64,000 bases of DNA from an uncultured delta proteobacterium (GTDB taxonomy: Bacteria > Myxococcota > Myxococcia > Myxococcales > Myxococcaceae): assembly GCA_963771175.1 (NCBI GenBank), contig CAVYSY010000025.1, positions 96,001-160,000 on the forward strand, written 5' to 3'. The notes under the pieces are model-generated. The model ran no database searches. It saw only the letters and a program-made list of their open reading frames with translations, and was not told the origin of the DNA. Made by a program: the position numbers and the translations under genes. How positions within the stretch are numbered: the stretch's first letter is position 1; each line of letters opens with the position of its first letter. Shown here in pieces: positions 24,934 to 47,797 of this stretch.

Positions 24934-25442
24934 TGAACACCCTGCTCGTCCTTGGATTGCTGGGCGCCTCGCCCGCCGAGCCGCCTCCGGCCCACCAGTT
25001 CGACGTGTACCTGCGCTCGGGGCTGACGCTGTTCTCCTCGCCCGCGCGCACCCAGGGAGGCGCCGGCGGAGGGCTCGGCCTGCGCGACACCGTGAACGGG
25101 CGCTGGCTGCTCCAAGCGGACGTGAACGGGCTGATCGGCATGGGCTCCGCGCTGGAGGTGCGGCTGGGCGCGGGGGTGCAGCGCGAGGGCTCGTGGTCCC
25201 CCATGGCGAGCCTTCAGCTCTCCGGGCTGATCGGCCAGCAGCTCCGACTGCTCTCCCCCGAGTACCCCCGGGCCGCGCCCGCCGCGGCGGTGACCCTGGG
25301 CGTGGCGCTGGCTCCCGTGCGCTTCAACGTGGCGAACACCCGGGTGTCCGCGCTGGAGCTGAACGTGGGCGTGGGCCCCGATGTCTCGGGGCTCGGGCTG
25401 CGCTACGGCCTCACGCTGCTGGAGATCGGCGTGCCGCTCTGA
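24930..25442 (+). CDS. Exported beta-strand-rich protein (paralog of 23384..23914)
   Basis: Shares RWLL, LEV, GxWSP, APxRF, VSALExNxG and LLxxGVxL with the 23384 protein; ATGA overlap with the peptidase. Confidence 0.75.
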   Translation: MMNTLLVLGLLGASPAEPPPAHQFDVYLRSGLTLFSSPARTQGGAGGGLGLRDTVNGRWLLQADVNGLIGMGSALEVRLGAGVQREGSWSPMASLQLSGLIGQQLRLLSPEYPRAAPAAAVTLGVALAPVRFNVANTRVSALELNVGVGPDVSGLGLRYGLTLLEIGVPL

Positions 25443-25918
25443 GCGGGTGTTACCCGGCCGGGAGGCGCGCTCGGGGCCGGAGAGGCTCCGGGCGCGCTGC
25501 GCCACATGCGGCCGGCGGTGACGAAGAAGAAGAGGCAGAAGGTGCCGTTGAGATAGAGCCAGTGGTGGAAGAAGCGGCCCGACTGCTGCCACCACAGCAC
25601 CGTCAGGCTGAGGTTCATCACCACCACCAGCGCGAGGATGGCCAGCCCGAGCGCGATGCCGGCCCGCCGCCGAACCAGCAGCAGCACCACCGTCAGCGGG
25701 TTGAACACCGCCAGCGACGTCATGAAGGCGTTCCACACCAGAGGCACCGTGGTGCCGGGCAACAGCCCCTGCTGGTAGGACAGCGGCCCCTTGGTCACCA
25801 GATCGACCACGTGCGCGATGCTGCCCACGCTGAAGCCCAGGCAATAGATGACGAGCCAGATGCGCTCGGTGCGCCGGGAAGGAGCGCGGGGAGTCTCGAG
25901 GGTGGAGTCGGTGCTCAT
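25403..25918 (-). CDS. Small membrane protein with about 4 TM helices, directly downstream of the NRPS TE
   Basis: Four hydrophobic stretches; starts 13 nt after the megasynthase stop, same strand. Confidence 0.7.
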   Translation of the reverse strand: MSTDSTLETPRAPSRRTERIWLVIYCLGFSVGSIAHVVDLVTKGPLSYQQGLLPGTTVPLVWNAFMTSLAVFNPLTVVLLLVRRRAGIALGLAILALVVVMNLSLTVLWWQQSGRFFHHWLYLNGTFCLFFFVTAGRMWRSAPGASPAPSAPPGRVTPAQSGTPISSSVRP

Positions 25919-45200: not shown

Positions 45201-47797
45201 GACGAGCCCTGTCCCGAGCGGAAGGCGCCATAGAGGGCGGCCAGCTCGCGAACGAGCACGCCCATGGACCAGCCATCGGAGACGATGTGGTGCACGACCA
45301 CCATCAGCACGTGCTCGTCCTCACCGAGCCGCACCAGGCCCGCGCGCAGGAGCGGCCCGCGAGCCAGGTCGAACGGCTGGGACGCCCGTGCATCCATCCA
45401 CCGCCGAGCCTCGATCTCGCGCTCCGCGGGCAGCGTGCCCGAGAGGTCCACCAGCTCCAGCGAAAGCTGTCCCTCGGGGGCGATGACCTGCCGGGGCGCG
45501 CCGTCCACGGTGACGAGGGTGGTGCGCAGCGCCTCGTGGCGATGGACGATCTCCCGCAAGCCGCGCTCGAGCGCGCCCACGTCGAGCCCGCCCCGGAGCC
45601 GCACGGCGGCGGGGATGTTGTAGACGGCACTCGCCGGGTCGAGGTGGTGCAGGAACCACAGCCGCTGCTGGGCCGGGGCCACGAGCAGCTCGGCGCCCTC
45701 GGGGCGGCGCGAGATGGGAGCCAGCGCCTGGGAGCCCGAGCGCCGGGCCATCACCTGAAGGGCCAGCTCGGAGAGGGTCGGCCCCTGCAGCAGCACCTCC
45801 AGGGGCAGGACCACGCCCAGGGTGCGCTCGACGTCATGGGCCAGCTCCACGGCGCCCAGCGAGTCCAGGCCATAGCGGGTGACGGGCACGTCCCGCTCCA
45901 CCTCCTCGAGACGCACTCGCGCCCGCTCGGCCACGTGGATCCGCAGCCACGCCTCCAGCTCCTCGACCGTGGTCGGTACCGAGGGCACCTCCGCCTCACG
46001 GACCTCCGTCGCCACCACCGTCACCGGCTCCGACCCGGCGCCGGAGTCCTTCCACGCGCTCACCTCGCGGAGCTGTCCGGAGAGGAAGGCCTCGCGAGTG
46101 GCACGGCGCTGAATCTTCCCGCTGGACGTCTTGAAGATGCTGCCGGGCTCGATGAGCACCAGGGCATGGAGCTGGACCTCGTGCGTCTCGGCCACGCGCT
46201 GGCGCACCGCGCCCACCACCTCGTCGAGGGAGGGAGCCTTGCGAACATCCACCTCCTGCACCAGCACCAGCCGCTCCTCGCCCTGGACCTCGACGGAGAA
46301 GGCGGCCCCGCAGCCCGGGACGCAGCGCCGGGTGGGCACGCTCCACCGTGAGCTCCAGGTCCTGCGGGTAGAGGTTGCGGCCCCGGATGATGATGAGGTC
46401 CTTCTGCCGGCCGGTGACGAACAGCTCGCCCGCCCTGCAGGAAGCCCAGGTCTCCGGTGCGCAGGAAGGGCCCGCCCTCGCCGTCGGCCAGCCGGGCGCG
46501 GAAGACGCGCTCCGTCTCCTCGGGCCGCTGCCAGTAGCCCAGGGCCACGCTCGGGCCGCTCACCCAGATCTCACCCACCACGCCCTCGGCGCAGCGGCGG
46601 CGCGTCTCCGGCTCGACCACGACGAGCCCCTGCTCCGGCAGCGTGCGACCGCAGCCCACCAGGGTGCGCGACGCACCGCCCGGGCTCGCGGGCGCGACCG
46701 GCTGGATGCGCTGCTCCAGCGAGGCCAGTCCACCGGGTGGAGGACGGGCTCCTCGGCCACCGCTCCGCCCGTGACGATCAGCGTGGCCTCGGCCAGGCCG
46801 TAGCACGGATAGAAGGCCTCGCGCCGGAAGCCACTCGGCGCCGAAGGCCTCGGCGAAGCGCGTCCAGCGTCTCGGGGCGGATGGGCTCGGCGCCGCTGAA
46901 GGCCACCTCCCAGGAGCTCAGGTCCAGCGCCTGACGCTGCTCCGGGGTGCTCTTGCGCACGCACAGGTCGAAGGCGAAGTTCGGGCCCGCCGCTGATGGT
47001 GCCCCGCGAGCGCGACACGGCCTCCAGCCAGCGCAGCGGGCGCTGCAGGAAGGTCAGCGGCGACATCAGCACCGCGGGGAAGCCCCCGTACAGCGGCTGC
47101 GAGGATGCCGCCGATGAGCCCCATGTCGTGGTAGGGCGGCAGCCAGATGACGCCGCGCGCTGTCCGCGTGTGCACCGGAAGCAGCGTGGATGATCGCTCC
47201 AGGTTGCTGCAGCAGGTTGCCGTGGCTGAGCATCACGCCCTTGGGCGTGCCGGTGGAGCCCGAGGTGTACTGGAGGAAGGCCAGCGAGTCCGCGCGCCAG
47301 CTCGGGCCGGCGCCAGTCGCTCGCTCGCCGGTCGGCCAGCTCGTCGGTGGCCACCCAGCGCAGCGCGCGCCAGCTCGGGCGCCTGCTCGAAGAGGGCCTC
47401 GGCCATGCCCAGGATGAAGGAGGTGGTGAGCACCACGCGGGCCTGCGCGTCGCGGATGATGGCCCGCAGGCGAGGCAGCGTGCGCTCCAGCCGCATGGGG
47501 TCCGGCGGATAGGCCGGCACCGCGATCACGCCCGCGTAGAGGCAGCCGAAGAAGCCGGCGATGTACTCCAGGCCCGGCGGGTAGAGCAGCAGGGCGCGCT
47601 CACCCGCGGCCGAGCCCGCCTGCAGCGCCGCGGCGATCCGCACGCGCCTTCTGGCGGAGCTGCGCGTACGTCAGCGAGCCTTCCTCCCGCACCTCGTCGT
47701 GGAAGGAATAGAGAAGCTGCTGGGCCTGTGCGCCAACACGCGCGTCCAGGAGCTCGACCAGCGTGGACCTCTGTCCTTCGACGACGGAAGCGATCAT
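39234..47797 (-). CDS. FAAL-ACP-initiated NRPS: FAAL-ACP-C-A(Ser)-T-C*-A(Ser)-T (multiple apparent frameshifts 43960-47650)
   Basis: FAAL fragments [88 protein letters not shown]; two A domains with pocket DVWHFSLVDK (Ser); [21 protein letters not shown]. Confidence 0.9.
39620..44360. repeat. Near-identical direct repeat of the Ser A domain (about 39620-41160 and 42820-44360)
   Basis: Long identical nucleotide runs, e.g. ggccagaagaactcccacaccgacacgtcgaagctgaagggcgtcttctgcagcaccacg at about 40501 and 43699. Confidence 0.95.

Follow-up and report, generated by a model that had tools for sequence, protein, structure and literature searches.

A probably intact FAAL-initiated lipopeptide assembly line in a myxobacterium and the barrel-peptidase-barrel cassette beside it

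What do two overlapping megasynthase genes in a 64,000-nucleotide stretch of myxobacterial DNA (the window) produce, and do they act without partners? A preliminary description of this DNA had regarded them as an orphan cluster without accessory genes. This has not been borne out, since the cluster is a short member of a fixed-head family and is accompanied by an outer-membrane peptidase cassette. The host is a soil myxobacterium, and the cluster a probably intact, apparently undescribed lipopeptide line with a fatty-acid cap and a reactive head. The reading favored here, considered somewhat more likely than not, is that an intact hybrid line at a variable site builds a lipopeptide whose reactive head is constant and whose tail is exchangeable, and that an M28 peptidase and two barrels would hydrolyze a lipopeptide amide at the cell envelope. 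The cluster alone would be of moderate interest, because myxobacteria often carry orphan NRPS-PKS clusters.

The insertion and its assembly line

The synthetase genes lie within a lineage-specific insertion of about 24.7 kb (23311..48016) that also contains the cassette and a membrane-protein ORF. Among the five genomes compared, the insertion flanks adjoin each other in G004 and in G017 (39 bp between them); at the corresponding empty site of G008, G015 and G001 there is only a homologue of the membrane ORF, with 72-74% DNA identity. The chromosomal site of the insertion appears to be variable. The membrane ORF itself (25403..25918, minus strand) is small, hydrophobic and without a Pfam match, and was rejected as a cluster-specific gene given that its homologues occupy the empty site in those three genomes. 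It is a separate ORF located directly after the thioesterase stop, so that the cluster does not extend to 25403 as previously proposed. Because the acyl-CoA dehydrogenase, asd and ferredoxin genes on the flanks are syntenic in all five relatives tested, they were rejected as cluster members as well.

The domain order FAAL-ACP-C-A-T-C-A-T // KS-AT-ACP-(C-A-T)x3-TE, already recognized in the preliminary description, was confirmed by Pfam and by comparison with the frameshift-free genes of a relative, the full order being FAAL-ACP-C-A(Ser)-T-C-A(Ser)-T // KS-AT-ACP-C-A(Phe)-T-C-A(Ala)-T-C-A(Tyr)-T-TE. Both genes and all their domains are on the minus strand. Gene 1 (39234..47797; FAAL-ACP-C-A(Ser)-T-CmodAA-A(Ser)-T) and gene 2 (25932..39241; KS-AT-ACP-C-A(Phe)-T-C-A(Ala)-T-C-A(Tyr)-T-TE) overlap by 8 bases at 39241-39234 (ATGAGTAG). 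Gene 1 includes the FAAL-ACP loading module (45761..47797, with about 11 frameshifts as assembled) and two near-identical Ser A domains (39622..44359) that share 97.5% of their DNA over 1540 bp and 99% of their protein over 340 aa. Gene 2 contains a KS-AT-ACP polyketide module devoid of reductive domains (36256..39241), three C-A-T modules with approximate limits, for Phe (module 3, 33076..36174, code DAWTVAAICK), Ala (module 4, 29965..33033, code DLFNNALTYK) and Tyr (module 5, 26850..29913, code DASTVAAVCK), and a thioesterase with the motifs GWSLGG ... PGSH (25932..26750; PF00975, E 1.5e-36). No KR, DH, MT or E domain was found in either synthetase gene. The three pocket codes of A3, A4 and A5 agree with those given before; alignment replaces the Ser code DVWHFSLVDK by DVWHVSLVDK, identical in A1 and A2, with V at position 5 and Ser as the reading either way. 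By the Stachelhaus codes, these signatures presumably correspond to Ser, Phe, Ala and Tyr. The catalytic motifs are kept in the KS (Cys/His/His), the AT (GHSLGE) and the TE (GWSLGG and PGSH), and those of the FAAL are present when the breaks are read as X. The locus therefore displays the elements of a FAAL-initiated hybrid NRPS-PKS lipopeptide line, that is, FAAL-ACP loading, C-A-T modules, a KS-AT-ACP and a terminal TE.

The same head was detected in three other genomes of the genus Archangium (G013, G017 and G009). It is followed by 9 tail modules in G013, 8 in G017 and 3 in the window, and the contig of G009 is cut off. The part common to all four clusters is the Dha-Ser-ketide head; a constant head and exchangeable tails characterize the family, of which the window cluster is the short member. 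This natural series, with tails of 3, 8 and 9 modules on one head, constitutes a ready test of head function, and its 22-kb member in the window is the easiest to express.

The barrel-M28-barrel cassette

The absence of adjacent MbtH, PPTase and exporter genes noted in the preliminary description holds within the window (4 MbtH and 5 PPTase matches are found elsewhere in the G000 genome), but an accessory three-gene operon that it missed adjoins the cluster at 23384-25442. This cassette is a coupled operon encoding a predicted outer-membrane barrel, an M28 lipoprotein peptidase and a probable further barrel. The first gene, sA (23384..23914, plus strand), encodes a 176-aa protein with a signal peptide and, in its predicted model, the eight strands of a small outer-membrane beta-barrel (pLDDT 86.5; Z 15.7 to the OprF barrel, 15.1 to NspA and 14.9 to PagL), and belongs to no Pfam or NCBIfam family. 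The M28 gene (23911..24933, plus strand), ATGA-coupled to both neighbors, encodes a zinc peptidase lipoprotein of 340 aa that matches PF04389 over the cut-off, and its lipobox Cys16 as well as H136, D138, D146, E178, E179, D204 and H306 are invariant in 51 aligned sequences. It has the His-x-Asp/Asp/Glu-Glu/Asp/His ligands and the AAP fold of peptidase M28 (match to the Vibrio aminopeptidase, E 1.5e-18), lies below all NCBIfam cut-offs and has no close characterized relative; the M28 relatives with solved structures comprise aminopeptidases, carboxypeptidases and glutaminyl cyclases. The third gene, sB (24930..25442, plus strand), encodes 170 aa with a signal peptide and, by homology, a probable second barrel paralogous to sA: profile-profile comparison gives 97.7% probability over 85 columns in the C-terminal half of sB, and its atlas neighbors are hypothetical or outer-membrane-barrel clusters. 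Prediction of a complex of sA, sB and M28 scored 0.86, against 0.81 for a control with sA replaced, so that it speaks neither for nor against a complex. A scan of 23000-26200 for sigma-70 promoters and terminators found none.

The cassette shares the 24.7-kb insertion with the synthetase genes, and in all three relatives (G013, G017, G009) it adjoins the cluster directly upstream of the FAAL gene. In the window it converges on the cluster, with the membrane ORF between them. Due to this convergent orientation, and to the separation by an ORF that also occupies the empty site, cassette and cluster could be separate insertions. The M28 copy of the window is also a different paralogue from that of the relatives: a single common origin was rejected (AU p 0.00014, on 26 of 65 rows picked after the first tree, itself a quick tree of 64 rows with one frameshifted copy left out). 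Therefore, the cluster family has been paired with the cassette twice. Proteins 93% and 83% identical to the window's M28 exist; a metagenome scan for its close relatives returned one distant 2.8-kb locus only, a plasmid search found no match at 1e-40, and no RNA run appeared among the sequencing runs listed.

Linkage to NRPS/PKS genes was observed at 39 of 65 cassette loci, a count that includes related genomes whose members are not independent. It was found at none of the 19 loci of the core-type clades and at 39 of the other 46, the baseline being 6.7% of non-synthetase positions of G000. The remaining 26 loci had no NRPS match in the DNA examined, which is shorter than 15 kb at five of them. 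Hydrolysis of a product by the cassette has to be weighed against a doubtful but serious alternative, in which the assembly line works as described and the cassette is a general envelope aminopeptidase module for prey-peptide digestion or broad defense, co-landing in variable islands and not acting on NRPS products. Accordant with a general module, a core-type copy unlinked to NRPS genes is present in nearly every member of the genus, seven of the 46 other loci are unlinked too, and the window copy lies closer to the core-type clades than that of the relatives does. In G000 the cassette is present at only one of about 11 FAAL-like loci, and the cassette-linked clusters have no first or last residue in common, nor a shared substrate residue. 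However, the cassette lies less than 1 kb from the FAAL start at about 20 loci of many different architectures, surrounded by tailoring and transport genes (CmlA hydroxylases, aminotransferases, ABC and MFS transporters), and island hitch-hiking would not put it so often at the FAAL end.

Under the favored reading of envelope hydrolysis, the M28 lipoprotein and the two small outer-membrane barrels would act after export on an amide of the cluster product or of related lipopeptides, as their gene linkage suggests, either for product maturation (deacylation or trimming) or for producer protection. Aminopeptidases normally need a free N-terminus, and the lack of one in an N-acyl peptide counts against an aminopeptidase-like M28 acting on such a product. 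A more ambitious and rather improbable version sees the cassette as an undescribed station for maturation at the outer membrane, repeatedly recruited to lipopeptide clusters by myxobacteria of the Archangium group. The lipid-capped precursor would be retained or handed on by the barrels; outside the cytoplasm, the zinc hydrolase would cleave off either its lipid or one terminal residue. In this family, the reactive head thereby exposed, either Dha with a Ser-ketone or a 3-amino-2-pyridone derived from them, would sit on tails exchanged as whole units, and the member in the window would use a non-standard extender.

The reactive head, the product and the state of the genes

The nature of the first residue, left as Dha or Ser in the preliminary description, depends on the second condensation domain, C2 (41157..42485, minus strand), whose upstream T domain carries GGDSI. 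The best solved relatives of C2 are McyA (E 1.3e-120) and AmbE (4.7e-73), followed by McyB (3e-51). When compared with the CmodAA motifs compiled in section 8 of PMC11342130, it exhibits HHxxxDG, [K/R]xVLLAAH, the Arg at C6, a position after a Ser/Thr module and CmodAA domains as closest solved relatives. With C2 being a CmodAA domain of the dehydrating type, dehydroalanine is the probable residue 1, and the ambiguity is settled towards Dha.

The extender unit is less certain, because the AT specificity motif reads RASH (near 37070) where G013, G017 and G009 read HAFH, the motif of malonyl-specific ATs. Methylmalonyl-specific ATs carry YASH together with VDVVQ and GHSQG; the window AT has xASH, yet its MHVAQ and GHSLG are malonyl-like. 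RASH occurs in one of 352 parsed AT motifs, that of the window itself, and no close homologue of this AT above about 56% was found among the best 120 listed, its own protein aside. A local frameshift artefact was rejected, given that the codons are clean and in frame in the assembled sequence. The extender unit may not be plain malonate, and the RASH acyltransferase may pick an unusual one.

The product structure, ring closure and cassette function proposed here are inferred from sequence, with domain order, codes, catalytic motifs, family structure and cassette linkage as the observed part and established enzymology as the guide to the product steps. The FAAL would load a fatty acid onto the ACP, and C1 would couple it to Ser. 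CmodAA would then dehydrate this Ser to dehydroalanine and couple the Dha to the second Ser, after which KS-AT-ACP would add one unreduced C2 unit, from malonate in the relatives and from malonate, methylmalonate or another unit here. Following addition of Phe, Ala and Tyr, the TE would release acyl-Dha-Ser-CH(R)CO-Phe-Ala-Tyr, either as an acid or closed to a lactone through the Ser hydroxyl still available. For the linear acid with a saturated C12, C14 or C16 acyl chain, the calculated [M+H]+ is 780.418, 808.449 or 836.480 with malonate and 794.433, 822.465 or 850.496 with methylmalonate; a lactone or a pyridone would be lighter by 18.011. The earlier suggestion of an N-acylated peptide of five residues, in which a single unreduced ketide follows Ser2, is supported.

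It is possible, although unlikely, that the head cyclizes. Attack of the Dha enamide beta-carbon on the Ser2-derived ketone, with six-membered ring closure and water loss, would cap the variable tail with a 3-acylamino-6-hydroxymethyl-2-pyridone-5-acetamide, a change that affects only the product and is compatible with the favored reading. Bacterial pyrrolizidine synthetases, as described in PMC10880069 and PMC11177316, close a ring of the same size from acyl-Dha onto the residue 2 carbonyl; the Dha-Ser-ketide head is conserved in all four clusters, and their CmodAA domains form a separate, divergent group. On the other hand, the electrophile in that precedent is a TE-bound thioester and its residue 2, Pro, pre-organizes the ring; enamides are also weak nucleophiles, and no cyclase gene is present.

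That C2 no longer dehydrates, or only epimerizes, leaving Ser-Ser in the product, is quite unlikely. Its active-site loop does depart from the usual HHAILDG (IGDG for ILDG), and it is only 59-60% identical to its own family, with other matches at about 50% or below, but both histidines, the [K/R]xVLLAAH-type motif and the C6 arginines are retained, and all four clusters have an upstream T domain of the GGDS type. Slightly less likely still is a previously known myxobacterial compound as the product, with its cluster in MIBiG or elsewhere in the literature. Many such compounds are published in subscription journals, mostly beyond the literature searched; nonetheless, no named pathway protein of the same architecture appeared among the matches listed, the tabulated myxochromide and cystomanamide module strings differ, and the literature searches gave no match. 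The earlier statement that this is not a recognized pathway stands within the literature searched.

As assembled, both genes are frameshifted, with about 11 breaks in the FAAL, others near 45205 and 43965 in gene 1 and two near 38686 and 26860 in gene 2 (the KS and the TE break). The purL gene of the same window is also split. Contigs from four runs of three studies cover 41200-48300 (the breaks near 38686 and 26860 lie outside) and lack single bases at at least 11 places within gene 1; the eight pieces listed for one of the runs, X1, differ by about 2-7%. Six of the alignment-derived FAAL breaks coincide with single bases missing from contigs of other studies, and five are not among the places listed. 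Without the 11 bases, gene 1 becomes 2604 stop-free codons with 61% identity to the G013 gene over 2600 columns, and the Ser A domain repeat appears as a joint in the independent contigs too. The read-supported frameshifts that the preliminary description took as a sign of an inactive cluster were not seen within 41200-48300. The cluster is probably intact, because many of the frameshifts stem from extra bases that are missing in contigs of three studies. Real frameshifts and a cluster decaying in this strain are scarcely credible: some 15 breaks clustered in the FAAL, and independent contigs from other strains whose identity with the present one is not established, speak for them, but nearly all breaks are single extra bases missing from close strains, no stop codon remains once they are read as X, and purL is split likewise.

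Comparison with known systems

An internal KS-AT-ACP between NRPS modules, here of uncertain extender identity, is shared with the nostopeptolide line of Nostoc, where NosB is reportedly KS-AT-ACP only. Nostopeptolides, products of a hybrid NRPS-PKS, resemble the proposed compound in being N-acyl peptides with an internal acetate-derived unit (PMC3252866), and minutumamide in its unreduced, methylated 4-amino-3-oxo unit and macrolactone (PMC12184294). Unlike the window line, with five residues and no methylproline genes nosE or nosF in its insertion, these systems involve a nonapeptide, butyrate and methylproline, and the accessible parts of both sources describe no Dha-Ser head or barrel-M28 cassette. 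Corallorazines (Corallococcus crz) share the conversion of acyl-Ser to acyl-Dha by a CmodAA domain with a [K/R]SVLLAAH motif (PMC11342130), but derive from a bimodular Ser/N-methyl-Gly NRPS with a starter C domain and contain a piperazine ring. The window line has FAAL loading, a second code for Ser, the ketide, three further modules (five NRPS modules in all) and a TE. The pyrrolizixenamide and brabantamide synthetases (PxaA, BraB) also pass acyl-Ser through a CmodAA to residue 2; in these synthetases this residue is Pro, the line ends there in a TE and a Baeyer-Villiger monooxygenase is needed, whereas here module 2 activates Ser and is followed by a KS, and no monooxygenase was found among the ORFs scanned in the insertion.

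Among myxobacterial lipopeptides, myxochromides, whose types differ by module number (PMC9581180), and cystomanamides are either Thr-first with MT and E domains or Asn-Asn-Phe-glycerate-Tyr, with no internal ketide after Ser; the window line has none of the MT, E or FkbH domains of those module strings. Tail length varies from 3 to 9 modules in the present family, rather than by a single module. As for the cassette, its peptidase shares fold and metal ligands with M28 aminopeptidases (Vibrio/Aeromonas AAP, LapA) at about 19% identity, and sA shares the barrel fold of OmpA, NspA, PagL and OmpW at 10-14% identity; no description of a coupled barrel-peptidase-barrel operon, or of an NRPS link for one, was found in the literature. 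A further parallel concerns corramycin and vioprolide, which share a myxobacterial FAAL-ACP start (PMC10099666). Theirs continues as FAAL-ACP-C-HAD(FkbH)-T for glycerate, unlike the C1 followed by a Ser A domain found here. In the same source, hydrolysis of a lipid-linked precursor is stated for vioprolide and hypothesized for corramycin through the periplasmic ComB, a putative hydrolase for which the word peptidase is absent from the main text (PMC10099666). Lipid loss from such FAAL-started products being only a hypothesis for corramycin, the cassette provides a concrete and deletable candidate for this step, and its linkage to dozens of such clusters makes it a marker gene for mining.

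Architecture of the assembly line and its dehydrating-type condensation domain

The source genome (G000; 9.8 Mb, 82% complete) carries the assembly line in two minus-strand genes that overlap at ATGAGTAG. Pfam searches of 33 reading frames and comparison with the proteins of the relative G013 have confirmed the order proposed in the preliminary description, namely FAAL-ACP-C-A-T-C-A-T in gene 1 (47797-39234) and KS-AT-ACP-(C-A-T)x3-TE in gene 2 (39241-25932). The motifs of KS, AT, TE and FAAL are all present; domains for reduction, methylation or epimerisation were not found. 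By alignment, the A-domain codes are, in order, DVWHVSLVDK, DVWHVSLVDK, DAWTVAAICK, DLFNNALTYK and DASTVAAVCK, which we take to specify Ser, Ser, Phe, Ala and Tyr; the last three strings stand as first described, and the Ser code had to be corrected at one letter (previously DVWHFSLVDK). The first two A domains are 97.5% identical, and the tail is internally duplicated, with DNA repeats of 87-90% among modules 3, 4 and 5. The genome can supply MbtH (four matches) and PPTase (five matches) from loci outside the window. Gene 1 is closely preceded by an exact 10-base direct repeat, CCCTGACTCT, at 47807-47816 and 47864-47873 (57 bases apart), to which a copy in inverted orientation near 47990 is related; it is possibly a regulator site, or chance.

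The second C domain has McyA (E 1.3e-120) and AmbE (4.7e-73) as its best solved relatives, McyB being far weaker (3e-51). It retains the HHxxx motif region and the C6 arginines, which count among the features of CmodAA (dehydrating-type) domains (PMC11342130), with a slightly deviant active-site motif, HHAIGDG. On the basis of these relatives and motifs the first Ser is probably dehydrated, so that the initial Dha/Ser ambiguity now leans to Dha. A second cluster of the same genome (G000:C1:260140-281000, minus strand) reuses CmodAA-A(Ser-like)-T // KS-AT-ACP after an Asn/Asp-type module and ends in a weak C/E-like domain, no TE appearing in the reading frames scanned. CmodAA domains also recur in open frames of about 4,750-4,900 aa across two other genera of the taxonomic family (L029-L053), some of them, where parsed, following a Val-type module.

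The AT specificity motif reads RASH in the window, with clean codons, versus HAFH in the relatives' ATs, and is the sole instance among 352 AT motifs parsed from the 120 matching proteins listed. Serine at that position fits a substituted extender, but the other motifs, GHSLGE and MHVAQ included, are malonyl-like, so that the extender may be malonate or a substituted unit.

A common head with variable tails

The cluster is not the isolated orphan first supposed. Searching 41 genomes at the DNA level yielded colinear matches of 13-16 kb (71-73%) in G013, G017 and G009, and all three relatives carry the head FAAL-ACP-C-A(Ser)-T-CmodAA-A(Ser)-T // KS-AT-ACP, its domains being 53-73% identical to those of the window. 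Every titled record with this head (L021-L023) belongs to Archangium. Beyond the head the clusters diverge. Nine modules (read as X, Val, Ile-like, Val, Ile-like, Val, Leu-like, Ala, Glx) make up the tail of G013, and a TE and a cyclic-peptide ABC exporter come after them; the tail of G017 consists of eight (Ser, Val, three Ile-like, Ala, Ala, Glx); and that of G009 has Val first and runs into the end of its contig. With a profile built from the four CmodAA domains, scores above 880 bits occur only in those four of 208 taxonomic-family genomes, partly by construction, the runners-up being the G000 paralogue (559 bits) and then scores of at most 446; only one other protein shows the gene-1 architecture among the matches listed (75 of 150 protein representatives). 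The Dha-Ser-ketide family is thus a narrow one. Upstream of the G013 cluster, beyond a kinase, stand a dioxygenase-like gene and a free-standing C-A-T gene (L015:1-4305), and an unassigned 517-aa lipoprotein-like ORF follows the exporter (L017:13186-14739).

The assembled FAAL contains about 11 frame breaks, and comparison with G013 proteins places four more near 45205, 43965, 38686 and 26860. When contigs of four public runs from three studies were aligned to 41200-48300, a range lying upstream of the breaks in KS (38686) and TE (26860), single bases were absent from them at no fewer than 11 places (at least 43964, 45202, 46317, 46428, 46839, 47295, 47319, 47322, 47334, 47368 and 47644), each in three or all four runs among the matches listed, five FAAL breaks not being among them. 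With those 11 bases left out, gene 1 reads through 2604 codons without a stop and shares 61% identity with its G013 counterpart. Two further genes, purL (within 53442-57600) and one presumed rpoB-like (within 676-5006), are likewise each broken into two frames, which points to indel errors throughout the assembly. The breaks are thus most likely assembly insertions, and inactivation by read-supported frameshifts was not borne out for the part of gene 1 compared. Contigs of two runs (X1 and X4) continue from the FAAL start into the same right flank of the cluster, so that in close strains the cluster occupies this site too.

The outer-membrane peptidase cassette

The flanks of the cluster (23311 and about 48016) directly adjoin one another in G017 and G004; in G008, G015 and G001 they are separated only by a homologue of a small membrane ORF. 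The insertion therefore takes in three ATGA-coupled genes (23384-25442) that the preliminary description did not mention, and the cluster is not free of accessory genes. The first gene is modelled to encode an outer-membrane barrel of eight strands, the third is a paralogue of the first, and the middle one encodes an M28 lipoprotein of aminopeptidase fold with invariant metal ligands. In G013, G017 and G009, whose clusters occupy another chromosomal site, the cassette immediately precedes the FAAL gene. The window's M28 has mostly Archangium proteins among its named relatives, and it does not group with the M28 of those three genomes (AU p 0.00014), so that the cluster family has paired with two different paralogues. 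Elsewhere in the window, the gene at 52532-53180 is matched in each of five relatives by several dispersed copies of 79-87% identity, and a lipoprotein-like ORF of 1358 aa at 57278-61375 (plus strand) contains five HYR domains.

Of 208 taxonomic-family genomes, 47 carry the M28 subfamily; of 363 order genomes, 46 carry the barrel, and all of these belong to the one family. Both tallies include one unpublished genome, G142, which underlies no other claim here. Linkage was scored at 65 loci (the window, the second G000 copy, three cluster-family loci, all 53 remaining same-genus copies and seven copies from two other genera), with up to 20 kb compared around the latter 60; beyond this set, other genera carry about 27 more copies. 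All three genes are present at 58 loci, and within the DNA compared an NRPS/PKS domain was found at 39, a C domain at 36 and FAAL at 24, against a baseline of 6.7% of non-synthetase positions in G000 within 9.5 kb of an NRPS/PKS domain. In a quick tree, none of 19 core-type copies (16 same-genus, three sister-genus) is NRPS/PKS-linked versus 39 of the other 46, beside many architectures, these groups having been defined after the tree was seen and kin not being independent. Among 54 ORFs scanned near the cassette are genes for CmlA-type hydroxylases, aminotransferases, glycosyltransferases and transporters.

From this linkage, the most likely task of the cassette would be to hydrolyse lipopeptide amides at the envelope, either in maturation or in self-protection. 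Counted against a dedicated role are its presence at only one of about 11 FAAL-like loci of G000 and the lack of a common terminal residue among the linked clusters; that it is a general maturation station seems unlikely. Two further cassette-linked families begin FAAL-ACP-C-A-T then KS-AT-ACP (L084, L085, L090, L092, L098, L101, L102; L116, L120, L125, L127, L129, L132), the AT site of L090 and L101 being GHSLGE with VRHAFHS. CmlA-type diiron beta-hydroxylase genes adjoin the cassette in L108, L110, L111, L113 and L117; L111 has no NRPS within 10 kb and is perhaps a cluster remnant. In L128, where the second barrel gene was not found, and L133, the cassette is followed by an MFS transporter, a DHHA1-domain protein and an NRPS with Ser codes.

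Predicted product and known systems

The FAAL would load a fatty acid, acyl-Dha-Ser would be formed, one unreduced extension and then Phe-Ala-Tyr would follow, and the TE would release an acid or a Ser lactone. In a bolder reading, by analogy with pyrrolizidine synthetases (PMC10880069, PMC11177316), the Dha enamide might attack the ketone derived from Ser and so form the ring of a 3-acylamino-2-pyridone.

The statement that the pathway is not a recognised one holds within the portions of the full-text literature covered, a body mostly exclusive of subscription journals, where no description was found of the cluster or of the barrel-M28-barrel cassette; the cluster tables of PMC12766979, PMC10435759, PMC13445942 and PMC13454183, seen in part, may list these clusters as unknowns. 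In the portions of the sources available, nostopeptolide (PMC3252866) and minutumamide (PMC12184294) share the internal unreduced ketide, and corramycin and vioprolide (PMC10099666) the FAAL start; corallorazine (PMC11342130) shares the acyl-Dha. The cluster nevertheless differs from each in its module string. It is a variant of FAAL-started hybrid lipopeptide lines, from a small family whose members keep a Dha-Ser-ketide head and have exchangeable tails, and the recurrent outer-membrane peptidase cassette, its role read from linkage, is the more surprising element.
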